From Oscillospiraceae bacterium (GTDB lineage: Bacteria; Bacillota; Clostridia; Oscillospirales; CAG-272): a stretch of 48,463 nucleotides of DNA. This document shows, piece by piece, positions 7,107-48,463 of the stretch. Every line of letters starts with the position of its first letter. Positions within the stretch are counted from its first letter, which is position 1. The stretch covers positions 1 to 48,463 of the forward strand of contig SVQL01000002.1 in the NCBI GenBank assembly GCA_015065365.1, given 5' to 3'. A program made the position numbers and the translations under genes. The notes under the pieces are model-generated. The model had not been told where the DNA came from, searched no databases, and saw only the letters and a list, made by a program, of their open reading frames with translations.

Positions 7107-7185
7107 GTACATGTTACTATGGAATAGTGCACATAAATCAAGGTTCCCAAGAAAAGGAGAAGGGGGAGGCGTAATCAAAGAAAAA

Positions 7186-8562
7186 ATGATACACGAAAAA
7201 GATCAAGTAAAGGATATAAAGATAGCCTACGTAGGGGGCGGCTCGCGCGGCTGGGCATGGACACTGATGAACGACCTTGCAAAGGCAGAGGATATGTCGG
7301 GAAGCGTATATCTTTACGATATAGACTACGAGGCTGCAAAAAACAACGAGATAATAGGAAATAAGATAGGCGGCGGCTGGAGCTACGTAGCGGTAAAGAC
7401 CATAGGCGAGGCGCTGACGGGAGCGGATTTCGTTATAGTATCGATATTGCCCGGAACGTTCGACGAGATGGAATACGACGTACACGCGCCTGAGAAGTAC
7501 GGGATATATCAGTCGGTTGGAGACACGACAGGCCCCGGCGGAATGATAAGAGCTATGAGAACCGTTCCGATGATAAGAGAGATAGCAAGGGCGGTAAAGG
7601 AGTATTCCCCTGATGCTTGGGTAATAAACTACACCAATCCCATGGCGATATGCGTAAAGACGCTGTATGAGGAATTCCCCGAAATAAAGGCCTTCGGATG
7701 CTGTCACGAGGTGTTCGGAACGCAGAAGCTCTTGTCGCAGGCGCTTGAGGATATACACGGAATAAGCGGAGCCAAGAGATCGGAGATATGCGTAAACGTA
7801 GTGGGAATAAACCACTTTACTTGGTTCACGTCGGCAAGGTATAAGAATATAGACCTGTTTGATACATATACGAGGTTCGTAGACAAATACTACGAGACGG
7901 GCTTTGACAAAAAGGGAGACGCGAATTGGATGAACAATTCGTTCTCGTCGGCGGCGAGAGTTCGCTTTGACCTGTTCAAGAGATTTGGCTACATAGCGGC
8001 GGCTGGAGACAGACATCTTGCGGAGTTCTGCGACAGAGACGAATATCTGACAGACCCCGAGACCGTAAAGAAATGGACGTTCGGACTTACGACTGTCGAG
8101 TGGAGAAAGAATGACCTTGTAAATCGACTTGCCAAGAGCGCGAGACTGCTTTCGGGAGAGGAAGAATTCAAGCTTCATAACAGCGGAGAGGAAGGAGTCA
8201 ACCAGATGAGAGCGCTTCTTGGGCTTGACAAGCTGGTGACGAACGTAAACGTACCAAACCGCGGACAGATATCCAACCTTCCGCTTGGAAGCGTAGTTGA
8301 GACGAATGCGGTGTTCTCGGCGGACAGCGTAATACCGGTAATGGCGGGAGAGCTTCCTGAGAGTATATACGAGAAGATACGCAAAGTCAGCGAGGAAAAC
8401 GACAGAGCGGTTGAGGCGGCGTTTTCGGAGGACCTTAATACCTGCTTTGAGGTGTTCTGTGAGAGCCATCTCTTGAAGGACCTCACCGATGAACAGAAAA
8501 AAGCCCTTTTCGACGAGATGTACGAGGGGACTAAAAAATATCTTAGTATGTACAAAAAATAA
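7186..8562 (+). CDS. glycoside hydrolase family 4 (NAD/Mn-dependent alpha-glycosidase type)
   Basis: The ORF-track start at 7078 lies inside the promoter, so the likely start is ATG 7186 (MIHEKDQVKDIKIAYVGGGSRGWAW). It has a Rossmann GGGS site plus CHEV and GINHFTW motifs. The long antisense ORF 7138-8469 is rejected. Confidence 0.8.
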   Translation: MIHEKDQVKDIKIAYVGGGSRGWAWTLMNDLAKAEDMSGSVYLYDIDYEAAKNNEIIGNKIGGGWSYVAVKTIGEALTGADFVIVSILPGTFDEMEYDVHAPEKYGIYQSVGDTTGPGGMIRAMRTVPMIREIARAVKEYSPDAWVINYTNPMAICVKTLYEEFPEIKAFGCCHEVFGTQKLLSQALEDIHGISGAKRSEICVNVVGINHFTWFTSARYKNIDLFDTYTRFVDKYYETGFDKKGDANWMNNSFSSAARVRFDLFKRFGYIAAAGDRHLAEFCDRDEYLTDPETVKKWTFGLTTVEWRKNDLVNRLAKSARLLSGEEEFKLHNSGEEGVNQMRALLGLDKLVTNVNVPNRGQISNLPLGSVVETNAVFSADSVIPVMAGELPESIYEKIRKVSEENDRAVEAAFSEDLNTCFEVFCESHLLKDLTDEQKKALFDEMYEGTKKYLSMYKK

Positions 8563-45158: not shown

Positions 45159-45196
45159 TTATAAATCCTTCTTAAACATAATATAATTACTATATA

Positions 45197-45225
45197 ATTT
45201 TAACATATATACCGATTAAAGTCAA
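45197..45225 (-). promoter_or_regulatory. promoter of the U32-uppP-rnmV-birA-tmk operon
   Basis: Minus strand TTGACT (45220-45225), 17 nt spacer, TAAAAT (45197-45202). Confidence 0.55.
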
Positions 45226-45251
45226 TAAAAAAATAATGTTTTTAAGACTAC

Positions 45252-45280
45252 TTGACAAATGACAACAATTGTGATATAAT
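45252..45280 (+). promoter_or_regulatory. consensus sigma-A promoter driving the tRNA-like array
   Basis: TTGACA (45252-45257), 17 nt spacer, TATAAT (45275-45280) with TGTG extension. No ORF follows it. Confidence 0.75.
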
Positions 45281-45290
45281 AATCGGGCTG

Positions 45291-45520
45291 AAAAGTTAAT
45301 AGCTTTACGGCATGCTGCTTCCCCATGGCGTACATATCGAAGTGGGGACGTTGCCGAGCGCTGCCTGTGGCAGATAAAGCGAGGCATAAGGAGTGGCAGC
45401 GGTCGAAATTTGCGAGCGAGAGCGAGCAAAAATTTCGGGTACCGCAACAGGACATAACGAGGCGGTCTTGAAAATTTGCAGTCGCGAGTTTCTGCAAATG
45501 CTCAAAATCCCTTGACACGC
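45291..45520 (+). ncRNA. tRNA-Ser-derived unit 1 with 106-nt insertion in the D-loop (candidate ncRNA or decayed tRNA paralogue)
   Basis: TATCGAAGTGG (45335-45345) is followed by the insertion (45346-45451) and then ACATAACGAGGCGGTCTTGAAAA (45452-45474). Next come a variable-arm-like hairpin TTTGCAG/CTGCAAA and a decayed T-arm GCTCAAAATCCCTT. The anticodon stem no longer pairs. Confidence 0.6.
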
Positions 45521-45594
45521 TTGATGTTTTCGCCCTTCGGACGAAGCAGAAAATTATTCCTTCTAAAACTTTTTCTAAAAAATTCGCAAATCTA

Positions 45595-45754
45595 AAAACT
45601 TAATAGTCTTACACGGAGGGTTATCGAAGTGGGGACGTTGCCGAGCGCTGCCAGTGGCAGAAGAAGCGAGGCATAAGGAGTGGCAGCGGTCGAAATTTTG
45701 TGAGCGAGAGCGAGCAAAAAATTTCGGGCACCGCAACAGGACATAACGAGGCGG
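45595..45754 (+). ncRNA. tRNA-Ser-derived unit 2 with 108-nt insertion in the D-loop
   Basis: GGAGGGTTATCGAAGTGG (45615-45632; the tRNA has GGAGAGGTATCGAAGTGG) is followed by an insertion (45633-45740) ~94% identical to that of unit 1, then ACATAACGAGGCGG (45741-45754). Homology to the tRNA then stops. Confidence 0.6.
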
Positions 45755-45809
45755 AGCCGAGAAAATTTAATATTGAATGTTGAGCTTTTTTGAGCTTGAA
45801 CATATATAC

Positions 45810-45898
45810 GGAGAGGTATCGAAGTGGTCATAACGAGGCGGTCTTGAAAACCGTTTGGGGGCAACCCCACAAGGGTTCGAATCCCTTCCTCTCCGCCA
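45810..45898 (+). tRNA. tRNA-Ser (anticodon UGA), CCA encoded
   Basis: Hand-folded cloverleaf of 89 nt. Acceptor stem is GGAGAGG/CCTCTCC, D stem TCG/CGA, anticodon stem GCGGT/ACCGT with loop CTTGAAA. It has a long variable arm TTGGGGGCAACCCCAC, T arm AAGGG-TTCGAAT-CCCTT, discriminator G and CCA. Confidence 0.92.
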
Positions 45899-45902
45899 AC
45901 CA

Positions 45903-45926
45903 AGCCCCGATTTTCGGGGCTTTTTT
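45903..45926 (+). terminator. intrinsic terminator directly after tRNA-Ser
   Basis: GCCCCGA-TTT-TCGGGGC is followed by TTTTTT (45921-45926). Confidence 0.8.
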
Positions 45927-45952
45927 CGACTAAAGAAGGAGGAACTTTTAAT

Positions 45953-47122
45953 ATGTTGCCAAATGATTTCTTTAAAATAACTAAAAATATAGAGCAACAG
46001 AATAATCGCACCTTAAAAGAACTCTTCAAAGGATATATAAAAGGTTCATTTCTTATAGATATTAAGTACCGAGTTATAAAGGAGTTAGGTGAAAAATTGC
46101 TAACACTTTACGACTTTAACTTTCAGCGCCATATAAATGATTTAGTAACTCCAAAAGATACAAATTCAGAATATGATATTTGCAAACATATTGTTGGTGT
46201 ACACAGAGCAAACACTATTTTTCTTACAAGTGAAGAAAGAATTCAAAAGGAGAAGGATGAAAAATACAAATGTCAGTTAGTCAACCAAGTTGTTGAGCAA
46301 ATTTCTCTCAGACCTTATGGAAGTGCTTATTTCAGAGAAAAGAAAATAGTGTTAGGTGATCAATTTAACTACTACCCCGTTCCATATGAGTTGTTCGTGC
46401 TATGTATGCGTATGCATACCATAATTTATCAAAAAGGAGCAATAGGAGATTCGTCTTATTATTTTGCAAAAATCATAAACAAGGCAATGTCTGCATTAAC
46501 TCTTTTAGAAGATAATTTTTTGAGTACTGCATATTTACCATGTCGAACAGCACTTGAGGTATATCTTAAACTTCTTGTTTTGCGAAATTTCCCTGAATTG
46601 TTTGAAGAAGATAAAAAGTTTTCGTATTATGAAACAATTCAAACTTGCTGTGAGCAAGAATTTCCCGAAGAGTTTAATCAGTTGTTTGTGGGCAGAAAAA
46701 ACAAAAAAGAAAAAAATAAAATTGAATATTTGCACTATGGATTCGTTGATAAAATTCCCGATTATCATGGTATTGTAAAACAAAAGCCATATTCTTTTAA
46801 TGGCCTTTTGAAGTATCTAAAAGCAATTTCGTCAAGTGATATTTATGATGTGTTCGACACAATTGAAACACTGCATAAAATGTGTCATGGCTATGTACAT
46901 GGAGGGATTAGCGAATCAAAATATCCATTACTTCATTATTTTGAAATAACATTGATGTTAAACTTTGTTGTTCCTACGACTTATATGATGCTTTGCGAAG
47001 ATTATAATGAAGAAACAACTATATCTGGAATTGATGTTCTGGATAAAATTCAATCAGATTCTCAACTTTTGGTTAGCCAATACGATAAACGAAGCACGGA
47101 AAATTTCGAAATTAGAAATTGA
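45953..47122 (+). CDS. AT-rich hypothetical protein (389 aa), possibly AbiV/DUF5677-like; function unknown
   Basis: A strong SD AAGGAGG (45936-45942) lies 10 nt before the ATG. Base composition is much more AT-rich than the flanks. No TM helix or signal peptide, and no YxDD, Walker A or Rx4-6H motif was seen. LPCRTALEVYLKLLVLRNFPE and LHKMCHGYVHGG are the only conserved-looking patches. Confidence 0.7.
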   Translation: MLPNDFFKITKNIEQQNNRTLKELFKGYIKGSFLIDIKYRVIKELGEKLLTLYDFNFQRHINDLVTPKDTNSEYDICKHIVGVHRANTIFLTSEERIQKEKDEKYKCQLVNQVVEQISLRPYGSAYFREKKIVLGDQFNYYPVPYELFVLCMRMHTIIYQKGAIGDSSYYFAKIINKAMSALTLLEDNFLSTAYLPCRTALEVYLKLLVLRNFPELFEEDKKFSYYETIQTCCEQEFPEEFNQLFVGRKNKKEKNKIEYLHYGFVDKIPDYHGIVKQKPYSFNGLLKYLKAISSSDIYDVFDTIETLHKMCHGYVHGGISESKYPLLHYFEITLMLNFVVPTTYMMLCEDYNEETTISGIDVLDKIQSDSQLLVSQYDKRSTENFEIRN

Positions 47123-47319
47123 TAGGTTCAATAGTTTTGAATTTCAAAATAATATTTTCATGCCACTCCGATTTCTGCGTATTCTTAAACGCCTTATACT
47201 CCTTTGCGGTGCAAGCGTTATCGCTTGGTGCTTCGCACCATGCTCGCATTCTGCGAGCCACCGCGGAGCAATCTGCGCTCACTCGCTCACAAGCAAGCTT
47301 GCAGCCTCGTTTCGCTTGA

Positions 47320-47832
47320 TTATCTGGTGGCGAGGTAGTTAATGATGCTCTGCTTTGAGATGTAGTACTTGCCCATTATGGCGACTGCGTATATGTATTT
47401 TCTCTGCACGTACCGAAGGATTGTTCTTCGGTGATAGCCTGTCAGCTCGGCGACCTCGTCCACGGTGAGCGTATCGGGTACGGCAGAAAGAAGATTCTCG
47501 AGCATTTCTTTGAACCGCGCTCTCTCCTTGCCACGGAGCTTATAATTCGTATCATCAAAATAACCCCCACAGTCCGAGCCCTGCGACTCGGTTCTGCGAG
47601 GGTTATTTGTCTTTTTGGCGTTGAAAATACCGACGGGGATTTCTTTCCGCTTCTCTCGTTCGCTCTTTGTCATGTAGGCGAGAACATCCTCCTTTCTGAC
47701 AGAATATTTGTGCGTAGGCGTGTTACGGATTTCGCACGGAATGATTCCGTTTTGCAGCATCCACGCCGCCTTGCGCTTGCTGATGTGGAGCATCTTGTAA
47801 AGCTGCTCCAAGGAGATGATCTCGCCTTTCAT
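47320..47832 (-). CDS. double helix-turn-helix (excisionase/MerR-like) DNA-binding protein of mobile-element type
   Basis: 170 aa. LYKMLHISKRKAAWMLQNGIIPC and LTVDEVAELTGYHRRTILRYVQRKYIYAVAIMGKYYISKQSIINYL are two HTH_17-like modules joined by a basic linker. Confidence 0.65.
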   Translation of the reverse strand: MKGEIISLEQLYKMLHISKRKAAWMLQNGIIPCEIRNTPTHKYSVRKEDVLAYMTKSEREKRKEIPVGIFNAKKTNNPRRTESQGSDCGGYFDDTNYKLRGKERARFKEMLENLLSAVPDTLTVDEVAELTGYHRRTILRYVQRKYIYAVAIMGKYYISKQSIINYLATR

Positions 47833-48136
47833 TGTTTAATCCTCGCTTTCGGAATTGATACTCAGTACATTGACATCACCTCCTACTATTCCAAAGGAAA
47901 ATTCAAGCTCGTTGAGCAAAACTTTTTTAACACCTCCTACTTTCTATGGCAATTTTTAAGGCGTTTGCACACCCTTGATTTGAAATTTTTTATCACCTCC
48001 TTCACCTATGTAAAGGAAGTTTTTTGCACAACTGACCACCCTCGCAATAAAAATCTCACAAACTTTTTTCAACACCCCTCACTTGGTAGAGAGTGAGAAC
48101 GCCATTTTCCTGACGGTCTGAAAGAAAAAATTAAAA

Positions 48137-48463
48137 TTACCCCCTCAATTGGTAGAGAGCGAGAACCTTCAAAAGTACGGAGCCAATAACGATACCGATG
48201 ATCGCACCTGCGCCGAGCGTACCGTCGTTGCTTTCAGTAATTACATATCCGCAAACGTCGCAAGAGCCATTGGCATTGGAATCAATATGTGCGCCCTTAT
48301 ACTGCTTTGCGCCGCAAGCACATTCCTTGTAATGCTCATCGGCGGTCTGCTTCCAATCCTCACTATAGCTATGAGTATGGTTGGGATCGTTTTCTTCGGG
48401 GGTGGTATCGGGAGCAGTAGCGGAAATATCTTCCCAGATAGCATAAAGGATAGTATCCTTATG
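48137..48463 (-). CDS. C-terminal fragment of a membrane-anchored protein (5' end outside window)
   Basis: Not in ORF track (no in-window start). Own translation is ...NHTHSYSEDWKQTADEHYKECACGAKQYKGAHIDSNANGSCDVCGYVITESNDGTLGAGAIIGIVIGSVLLKVLALYQLRG*, with a Cys/His motif followed by a C-terminal TM helix. ORF-track entry 48241-48444 is a different frame and is rejected. Confidence 0.55.
   Translation of the reverse strand, partial: HKDTILYAIWEDISATAPDTTPEENDPNHTHSYSEDWKQTADEHYKECACGAKQYKGAHIDSNANGSCDVCGYVITESNDGTLGAGAIIGIVIGSVLLKVLALYQLRG

Follow-up and report, generated by a model that had tools for sequence, protein, structure and literature searches.

A DUF5677-family gene behind tRNA-Ser(UGA) in an Oscillospiraceae bacterium: probable att-proximal cargo of a tRNA-integrating element

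Near the end of a 48,463-nucleotide stretch of DNA from an Oscillospiraceae bacterium (contig SVQL01000002.1, assembly GCA_015065365.1), hereafter called the window, an AT-rich open reading frame (ORF) of 389 aa lies directly behind a tRNA-Ser gene and its terminator. The ORF (45953-47122, forward strand) has a strong Shine-Dalgarno (SD) sequence and no space for a promoter of its own, and the locus raises the question of where such a gene comes from, how it is transcribed, and whether the tRNA-like RNAs encoded upstream of it belong to the same system. A sequence-only reading of the locus, made without database searches, had proposed that these RNAs and the ORF form an RNA-protein module resembling a type III toxin-antitoxin (TA) system. 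Our computational analysis points elsewhere. With a probability of roughly 0.7, we consider the ORF to be the first cargo gene, counted from the attachment (att) site, of a mobile element integrated in the anticodon loop of tRNA-Ser(UGA). Its product is predicted to be an all-alpha protein of the uncharacterised DUF5677 family, and the RNAs upstream look like a separate subject.

The tRNA-Ser unit and the block that carries the ORF

Transcription of the tRNA-Ser unit is driven by a sigma-70-type promoter at 45252-45280 (forward strand), in which TTGACA and TGTGATATAAT are separated by 17 nt. It matches TTGACA-17-TATAAT at 12 of 12 positions, has an extended TG, and is the sole perfect sigma-70-type site in the region; on another contig, L094, a homologous promoter followed by TAATCGGG is found upstream of the leader (described below) and tRNA-Ser. 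The gene for tRNA-Ser(UGA), with its CCA encoded, occupies 45810-45898 on the same strand (ARAGORN; Rfam tRNA, 57.4 bits). It is followed at 45902-45926 by a predicted intrinsic terminator with a G+C-rich stem of 9 bp and a 3-nt loop (AAGCCCCGA-TTT-TCGGGGCTT, 45902-45922) and a T-run up to 45926. In the predicted fold this hairpin is the dominant structure (centroid energy about -15.6 kcal/mol); a simple terminator scan omitted it only because maximal stem extension takes two T from the tail. After a gap of 9 nt comes the SD sequence AAGGAGG (45936-45942), 10 nt upstream of the ATG at 45953. The promoter scan detected no sigma-70-like site in the window between terminator and SD or within the 3' half of the tRNA. 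In all these coordinates, and in its claim that no promoter fits between terminator and SD, the sequence-only reading was confirmed.

It was equally right about a sharp compositional break. GC content is 0.29-0.35 across 45900-47199 (about 31% in the ORF) against 0.43-0.55 on either side, and recovers at about 47200. Eight related loci have an equal gene-specific drop, 0.33-0.36 against flanks of 0.43-0.57. A position directly 3' of a tRNA gene combined with deviant composition, as seen here, is expected of a tRNA-integrating element.

The comparison of relatives carries most of the argument. We took 78 loci with relatives of the ORF from species-representative genomes, and obtained more contigs by exact protein look-up; where single loci have to be told apart, we give their numbers. 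A subclade at 64% identity or more comprises ten loci, namely the window, L011 and L015-L022. In all ten, tRNA-Ser(UGA), either whole or as its 3' part, is followed by the hairpin AAGCCCCGATTTTTCGGGGCTTTTTT, a short spacer, the SD motif AAGGAGGA and the ATG. tRNA-Ser genes that have no ORF behind them, such as those of L094, the first tRNA of L021 and the second of L018, bear other terminators, so the terminator belongs to the block of the ORF, with which it travels, and not to the tRNA.

In several relatives the tRNA part is itself only a fragment. In L014/L022 the tRNA is present from the anticodon loop on (...ctaagTCTTGAAAACCGTTTGGGG...CCGCCA), with unrelated DNA upstream, and the flanks encode HTH_17, ParB and a 2906-aa MutS_I/SNF2 protein. 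L020 has the same breakpoint as L014 (...gtgcCTTGAAAACCG...); upstream of it is a Fic/HTH gene, and chromosomal purine genes follow downstream. The 3' fragments begin at TCTTGAAAACCG in L014/L022 and at CTTGAAAACCG in L020. In L021, TTCCGCCA and the terminator are all that is left of the tRNA before the ORF, and an intact tRNA-Ser lies 1.1 kb upstream. Directly 3' of the 387-aa ORF of that locus are genes for a tyrosine integrase, a MobA/VirD2 relaxase and an AAA_25/DnaB-like protein, which by their predicted products are the gene set of an integrative mobilizable element (IME). L018 has the ORF between two tRNA-Ser or tRNA-Ser-like copies, about 1.4 kb in all, followed only by a stub of about 60 nt that matches the 3' end of the L014 HTH_17 gene; it looks like a decayed att-flanked remnant resembling a cis-mobilizable element (CIME).

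The ORF is thus linked to the tRNA 3' part and the terminator, and adjoins mobile-element genes. As for recombinase or transfer genes, L021 has the integrase, the relaxase and the AAA_25 protein next to the ORF, L014 has ParB and the giant helicase, and the window, before it ends, shows an excisionase-family HTH_17 gene only. Homology between the window and the element-borne fragments starts at 45842-45850 in two independent loci. This interval is the anticodon-loop sequence TCTTGAAAA (forward strand), the putative recombination core and left boundary of the element-borne segment, and the tRNA identity of leader copy 1 and of the tRNA mimics in L017 and L006, described below, stops at the same point. 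The crossover site therefore probably lies in the anticodon loop, and the tRNA-Ser(UGA) of the window would be a hybrid, with a chromosomal 5' part and, from 45842 onward, a part supplied by the element. Six species-representative genomes with differing flanks contain copies of the gene that share 94-98% nucleotide identity, at 31-36% GC in surroundings of 43-57%. Judged by these sequence comparisons, the ORF has spread across species, and the proposal that it was acquired horizontally at a tRNA gene stands.

As a mechanism, we propose that the element brings its own tRNA 3' part, strong terminator, SD and ORF as a single contiguous block. Integration would rebuild a working tRNA, and the promoterless ORF would land directly behind the host tRNA promoter, where those tRNA transcripts that run on past the terminator would express it. 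For tandem arrays, a promoter in the arm of an upstream element might be the source instead. Since no promoter fits the gap between terminator and SD in any subclade locus, the ORF must be transcribed through the terminator. Where the tRNA is whole (the window, L011 and L016-L018), the likely source of this transcription is the tRNA promoter, by read-through. In L020, a promoter-like TTGCAA-17-TGTTATAAT faces the tRNA fragment from about 330 nt upstream, within unrelated DNA. The only match in L014, TCGACA-16-TAATAT, was rejected as a promoter of the ORF; because it overlaps the start codon, it is of no use to the SD.

Elements of this general kind are well described. IMEs, ICEs (integrative conjugative elements) and CIME remnants at tRNA 3' parts, with tandem accretion (PMC5704250; ICEberg 2.0, PMC6323972), likewise carry a tRNA 3' copy and rebuild the tRNA. 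The likeness extends to the integrase and relaxase of L021, the excisionase-type HTH gene, accessory cargo on the att side and tandem or decayed arrays of partial tRNAs, and L018, att-flanked and without a recombinase, is CIME-like. Unlike in IMEs and ICEs, the cargo is fused directly behind the element's tRNA 3' end and terminator, with an SD but no promoter, in ten loci; the integrase and attR of the element in the window would lie outside the visible sequence. The possible use of tRNA promoters by integrated elements has come up before, in connection with argW-intS of KplE1 (PMC2951348). The KplE1 coupling and the promoterless cassettes of integrons resemble our locus in that a gene at the edge depends on a host-side or external promoter, and hence on the integration state. 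However, the KplE1 integrase has its own promoter overlapping attL, whereas the coupling here must cross a terminator, and integron cassettes use attC and IntI, both of which are absent here. Understood in this way, the ORF joins a kind already known, the accessory cargo that tRNA-integrating elements carry at their att end, and its coupling to the tRNA unit is possibly purposeful.

In L021 we also observed a second AT-rich ORF of 244 aa (7161-7895) with a sub-threshold DUF5677 match (E=1.8e-4), located between the intact tRNA-Ser and the tRNA remnant. Together with the 387-aa ORF, it makes two DUF5677-type cassettes stacked in one tRNA-Ser hotspot.

The 389-aa protein and its possible role

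A search of 5.8 billion proteins returned 197 homologues, nearly all of 385-405 aa and aligning end to end. An exhaustive profile search of 1.84 billion cluster representatives yielded only 252 clusters at 50% identity, so the family is compact. The ORF is a real gene under purifying selection: pairwise dN/dS within the close subclade is 0.07-0.15, which rules out a pseudogene or silent DNA.

The window protein matches the Pfam family DUF5677 (PF18928) with 28.0 bits (E=2.8e-6; gathering cutoff 27.1), over residues 169-320 and profile positions 6-153 of 166. The same family is matched by 35 of 36 aligned members, with a best E of 7.8e-10, and no second Pfam family recurs among them. AlphaFold2, run with the family alignment, gave an all-helical model with a predicted local distance difference test score (pLDDT) of 89 and a predicted template modelling score (pTM) of 0.88; a separate model of the C-terminal domain (residues 140-389) was equally confident. 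The predicted product is thus soluble and all-alpha, and its family, with members of about 390 aa, has a DUF5677 domain inside. The ORF resembles Pfam DUF5677 in matching nearly the full profile and in being a single gene on mobile DNA. It differs from it in that the match is weak and the family is longer and two-part, with an extra N-terminal helical region of about 140 aa and a C-terminal extension. To our knowledge, DUF5677 is an uncharacterised family with no member of known activity.

Conserved columns of the family alignment include G82/H84, C197-R198-x3-E202, G263/D266, C311-H312-x3-H316 and L327-H328-Y329-F330-E331, with the motifs CRxxxExYxK, MCHGYxHG and PLLHYFE; the invariant residues include His, Glu, Cys and Asp. 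Among these columns there is no Arg followed by His at 4-6 residues, as in the HEPN motif Rx4-6H, in agreement with what had been read from the single sequence, and no HEPN family of Pfam is found at E<=1 in any of the 36 members. An impression that the protein resembles AbiV or DUF5677-type proteins held for DUF5677 and failed for AbiV, for which Pfam, PADLOC and fold comparison gave no match. AbiV (a HEPN-AbiV RNase; bioRxiv 10.1101/2024.05.05.592566; HEPN survey, PMC3710099) is also a helical, AT-rich, single-gene cargo of the abortive-infection type, but the ORF family is without the Rx4-6H motif and without a match to the Pfam family HEPN_AbiV, to PADLOC AbiV or, in Foldseek, to HEPN.

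What the protein does has to be judged from its context. The likeliest single role is a stand-alone one in defence or exclusion, directed at phages or rival elements, although we hold it tentatively and at less than even odds. L011 adjoins a cluster of DndB, a DEAD helicase and a methyltransferase. Elsewhere the defence neighbours are DruE, GajB, HamA, MADS mad2/3, a type I methyltransferase and PDC candidates. Additionally, DUF5677 is reportedly one of the domains enriched beside defence-linked serine recombinases (preprint, PMC12632615). Among the 120 immediate neighbours in 66 non-redundant loci there are 153 Pfam families, and each occurs three times at most; the most frequent, at that maximum, are serine recombinase, Fic, HTH_17 and GDSL lipase. 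A conserved partner gene was rejected on these counts, and the ORF has no obligate partner.

Several observations weigh against the picture of an att-proximal cargo gene with a defence role. Every related locus is metagenome-derived, either a metagenome-assembled genome or a metagenomic contig, and mis-binning is possible. The window stops 1.3 kb past the ORF, and this short remainder shows neither an integrase nor an attR or another copy of the tRNA-Ser 3' part. The gene has lost its connection to the tRNA promoter in L014 and L020, so that read-through from this promoter cannot be the sole arrangement, and the terminator looks strong, so that read-through may be low. The Pfam score of the window protein barely exceeds the cutoff. 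No model of PADLOC, PHROGs or NCBIfam matches the window ORF, and PADLOC on 36 family members gave one weak DrmC match only. Foldseek found nothing below E=0.1 for the full model in PDB and BFVD or for the C-terminal domain in PDB, and a sequence-profile search of PDB gave zero matches for the family. The case for defence is one of association, and when a single DUF5677 ORF was put to the test in Enterococcus faecalis with six phages, it did not figure among the protective ORFs (PMC12632615).

The last result would also suit a gene that serves the element and not its host. The ORF could be a housekeeping gene of the element, such as a regulator or a factor for maintenance, exclusion or transfer control. 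It is placed between the att site and the HTH_17 or integrase genes, and it encodes an all-alpha protein with no enzymatic match. We nevertheless find this doubtful, since the contexts of homologues are very varied, many of them with no recombinase or relaxase as immediate neighbour, and the gene survives in the L018 remnant, which is stripped of all element genes. The GC content of the ORF is unlike that of the rest of the element. Moreover, the ORF diverges much faster than the adjacent HTH_17 gene: between the window and L014 the HTH_17 proteins are 90% identical and the ORFs only 65%, a pattern typical of fast-turnover cargo. A different possibility is that the link to tRNA-Ser is functional: the protein would sense tRNA-Ser or act on it, perhaps as a nuclease or modifier directed at tRNA, and the element would supply the tRNA 3' half or co-transcription to that end. 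The strict linkage to tRNA-Ser(UGA) across the subclade would agree with this, and the many invariant His, Glu, Cys and Asp residues are consistent with an enzyme. Some distant homologues are also found a few hundred nucleotides 3' of a tRNA on the same strand (L030, Arg; L032 and L046, Ser; L058, Leu; L067/L072, Trp), but the identity of these tRNAs varies, as it does at generic integration hotspots. In the majority of the 78 loci there is no tRNA within 1.5 kb, the 3' parts of element and chromosomal tRNAs are distinguished by nothing but compensatory changes, located in the variable arm and the acceptor stem, and the protein has no nuclease or HEPN signature. A functional tRNA link is, on balance, very unlikely. 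Cargo of a tRNA-Ser-targeting element, probably mobile between species and tentatively defensive, remains our preferred account.

The leader RNA and the toxin-antitoxin analogy

Between the promoter and the tRNA lie two copies of a leader sequence, each of which contains the acceptor 5' strand, the D-arm and the anticodon-stem 5' strand of the downstream tRNA-Ser. Copy 1 (45326-45477, forward strand; covariance model, 174.5 bits) mimics the tRNA 5' half with a structured insert of about 107 nt in the D-loop, and matches the tRNA up to the anticodon-loop CTTGAAAA. Copy 2 (45613-45766, forward strand; 186.1 bits) ends 43 nt upstream of the tRNA and has the architecture of the single leaders in L093-L095. 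These three contigs were found by a metagenome scan with a 24-mer from the repeat, and their leaders are at 1119-1272 in L094, 2170-2319 (reverse strand) in L095 and 2074-2227 in L093. In L094 (UGA) and L095 (CGA) the leader precedes a tRNA-Ser with its own terminator and there is no DUF5677 ORF downstream. L093 has the leader and the start of a tRNA-like sequence before the contig ends, with the anticodon beyond that end.

Across the five sequences the insert is about 84% conserved, with a variable terminal hairpin. Two helices have compensatory changes, CTGCC/GGCAG to CACCC/GGGTG and CGAAATTT/AAATTTCG to CAAAATTT/AAATTTTG, and the mimic flanks of L095 and L093 co-vary with their own, different tRNA-Ser. 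From these patterns, the insert-bearing leader looks like a genuine structured RNA, independent of the ORF. It matches nothing in Rfam 15, and a search of 81 sequence sources with the leader covariance model found no instance outside the species of the window and L093-L095. The leader is a candidate new cis-acting RNA, which could compete with the 5' half of the tRNA itself in the precursor.

Partial 5' copies of tRNA-Ser were also seen 5' of, or beside, tRNA-Ser genes in several Clostridia, in L017 (7663-7708), L006 (37-82 and 227-312), L018 (5250-5450 and 6939-7048), L032 (6325-6357) and L035 (5398-5431). They are of several types: without insert (L017, L006), with a hairpin insert of about 70 nt at the junction of acceptor strand and D-arm (L006, L018), and with a 20-nt insert (L018). 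Many stop at the anticodon-loop CTTGAAAA and continue into a semi-conserved spacer that contains TTCTAAAA repeats. Such copies may be variants of the leader, or debris left at the att site by repeated integration. Since the insert-less mimics and copy 1 of the window stop at the CTTGAAAA breakpoint of the element, part of the array may be recombination debris.

Alternative neighbourhoods, an empty site among them, were sought through the adjacent U32 peptidase gene, and all contigs broke inside the leader repeats: five contigs from the species of the window (L098-L102) end inside leader copy 2, at about 45612-45735 in window coordinates. In L006 the arrangement of the units differs from that in the window. 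These observations suggest assembly breaks caused by the repeats, heterogeneity of the leader array in the population, or both. A 17-nt near-repeat, TTTAACATATATACCGA / TTGAACATATATACGGA, is present at 45199-45215, just 5' of the promoter, and at 45796-45812, just 5' of the tRNA. It could be the boundary of a duplication or insertion of the leader region of about 600 bp, or chance in AT-rich DNA.

With the leader described, the type III TA analogy can be weighed. It holds that the tRNA-like repeats, or the tRNA, are an RNA antitoxin or partner of the protein, and that the terminator sets the RNA:protein ratio. The layout that inspired it is real: promoter, structured RNAs, an intrinsic terminator and a protein gene follow each other as in ToxIN, AbiQ/antiQ, CptIN and TenpIN (PMC3401426, PMC5086642), systems that are also often on mobile DNA and linked to phage defence, and the ORF of the subclade is always behind a tRNA-Ser sequence and the same terminator. 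However, the antitoxin RNAs of type III systems are short tandem repeats processed by the toxin, and Tandem Repeats Finder reports no tandem repeat in 45160-45960, where direct repeats of about 34-36 nt would be expected. The sole repeats are the two leader copies of about 150 nt, dispersed 287 nt apart, and the real, genuine tRNA. Type III toxins are small endoribonucleases of the ToxN/AbiQ kind, whereas the product here is a 389-aa all-alpha DUF5677 protein with no match to ToxN, AbiQ, CptN or TenpN in Pfam or PADLOC.

Most telling is that RNA and protein gene do not co-occur across homologous loci. The leader and tRNA-Ser are found without the ORF in L094 and L095, and conversely L011 and L014-L022 have the ORF but lack the insert-bearing leader; all that L014 and L020 keep of the tRNA is a non-functional 3' fragment. 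Of the homologues at 47% identity or less, the majority lack a nearby tRNA, and promoter-like sequences belonging to the gene itself are seen in many. This two-way dissociation of leader and ORF largely refutes the type III TA reading, to which we now give next to no credence. The RNA-protein module put forward in the sequence-only reading has accordingly been abandoned in favour of element cargo.

The region downstream of the ORF and outlook

Downstream of the ORF, on the reverse strand, 47123-47196 is what survives of the 3' end that the HTH_17 gene originally had, about its last 23 codons (BLAST, 92-94%). The same sequence is kept behind the ORF in L014/L022 and L018. It is separated from the rest of the gene by a GC-rich insertion at 47197-47319, about 124 nt relative to L014, which cut off the C-terminal tail of the HTH_17 protein; the L014 protein is 23 aa longer than that of the window. 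The gene itself (47320-47832, reverse strand, convergent with the ORF) encodes a DNA-binding protein of 170 aa of the HTH_17/excisionase family (Pfam HTH_17, E=1.9e-15; excisionase family TIGR01764; PHROG excisionase). Miniature inverted-repeat transposable elements were considered as the origin of the 107-nt D-loop insert or the 124-nt insert and rejected, as neither has further copies in the 48-kb window. Similarity between the 124-nt insert and the leader insert is within the range of shuffled sequences (score 33 against a mean of 23, standard deviation 4.5 and maximum 44).

In the region 5' of the HTH_17 gene (47920-48166) are direct repeats, three copies of AAnTTTTTTAnCACCTCCT spaced by 63 and 78 nt and two copies of CCCCTCAnTTGGTAGAGAGnGAGAAC spaced by 66 nt. 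These are possible binding sites for a regulator or recombinase of the element. The corresponding arm of L014 has a different repeated motif, GTTCTCTCCAA.

A more far-reaching version of the cargo reading would have the element deliberately wire its cargo to the host tRNA-Ser unit by bringing the tRNA 3' half, a leaky terminator and the ORF, with the leader mimic, at the start of the same transcript, competing with the tRNA 5' half and so gating both maturation and read-through. We regard this as unlikely. If it were true, the protein would be made only when the element is integrated, in proportion to the activity of the tRNA promoter and thus to growth rate, and the locus would represent an expression device of a new kind for a DUF5677 effector, controlled by RNA and dependent on the integration state.

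For the family, the outcome is that a tempting type III TA analogy is replaced by an uncharacterised DUF5677 family of about 390 aa which, as we read it, occupies the att-proximal edge of elements that target tRNA-Ser in Clostridia of gut and rumen. With its conserved order of tRNA 3' half, terminator, SD and ORF, the locus would be a clean test case for whether integrated elements borrow tRNA promoters, something seldom demonstrated. Screens for single-gene defence or exclusion systems could reasonably include the family. The leader RNA, absent from Rfam, may be a more interesting object in this region than the ORF.

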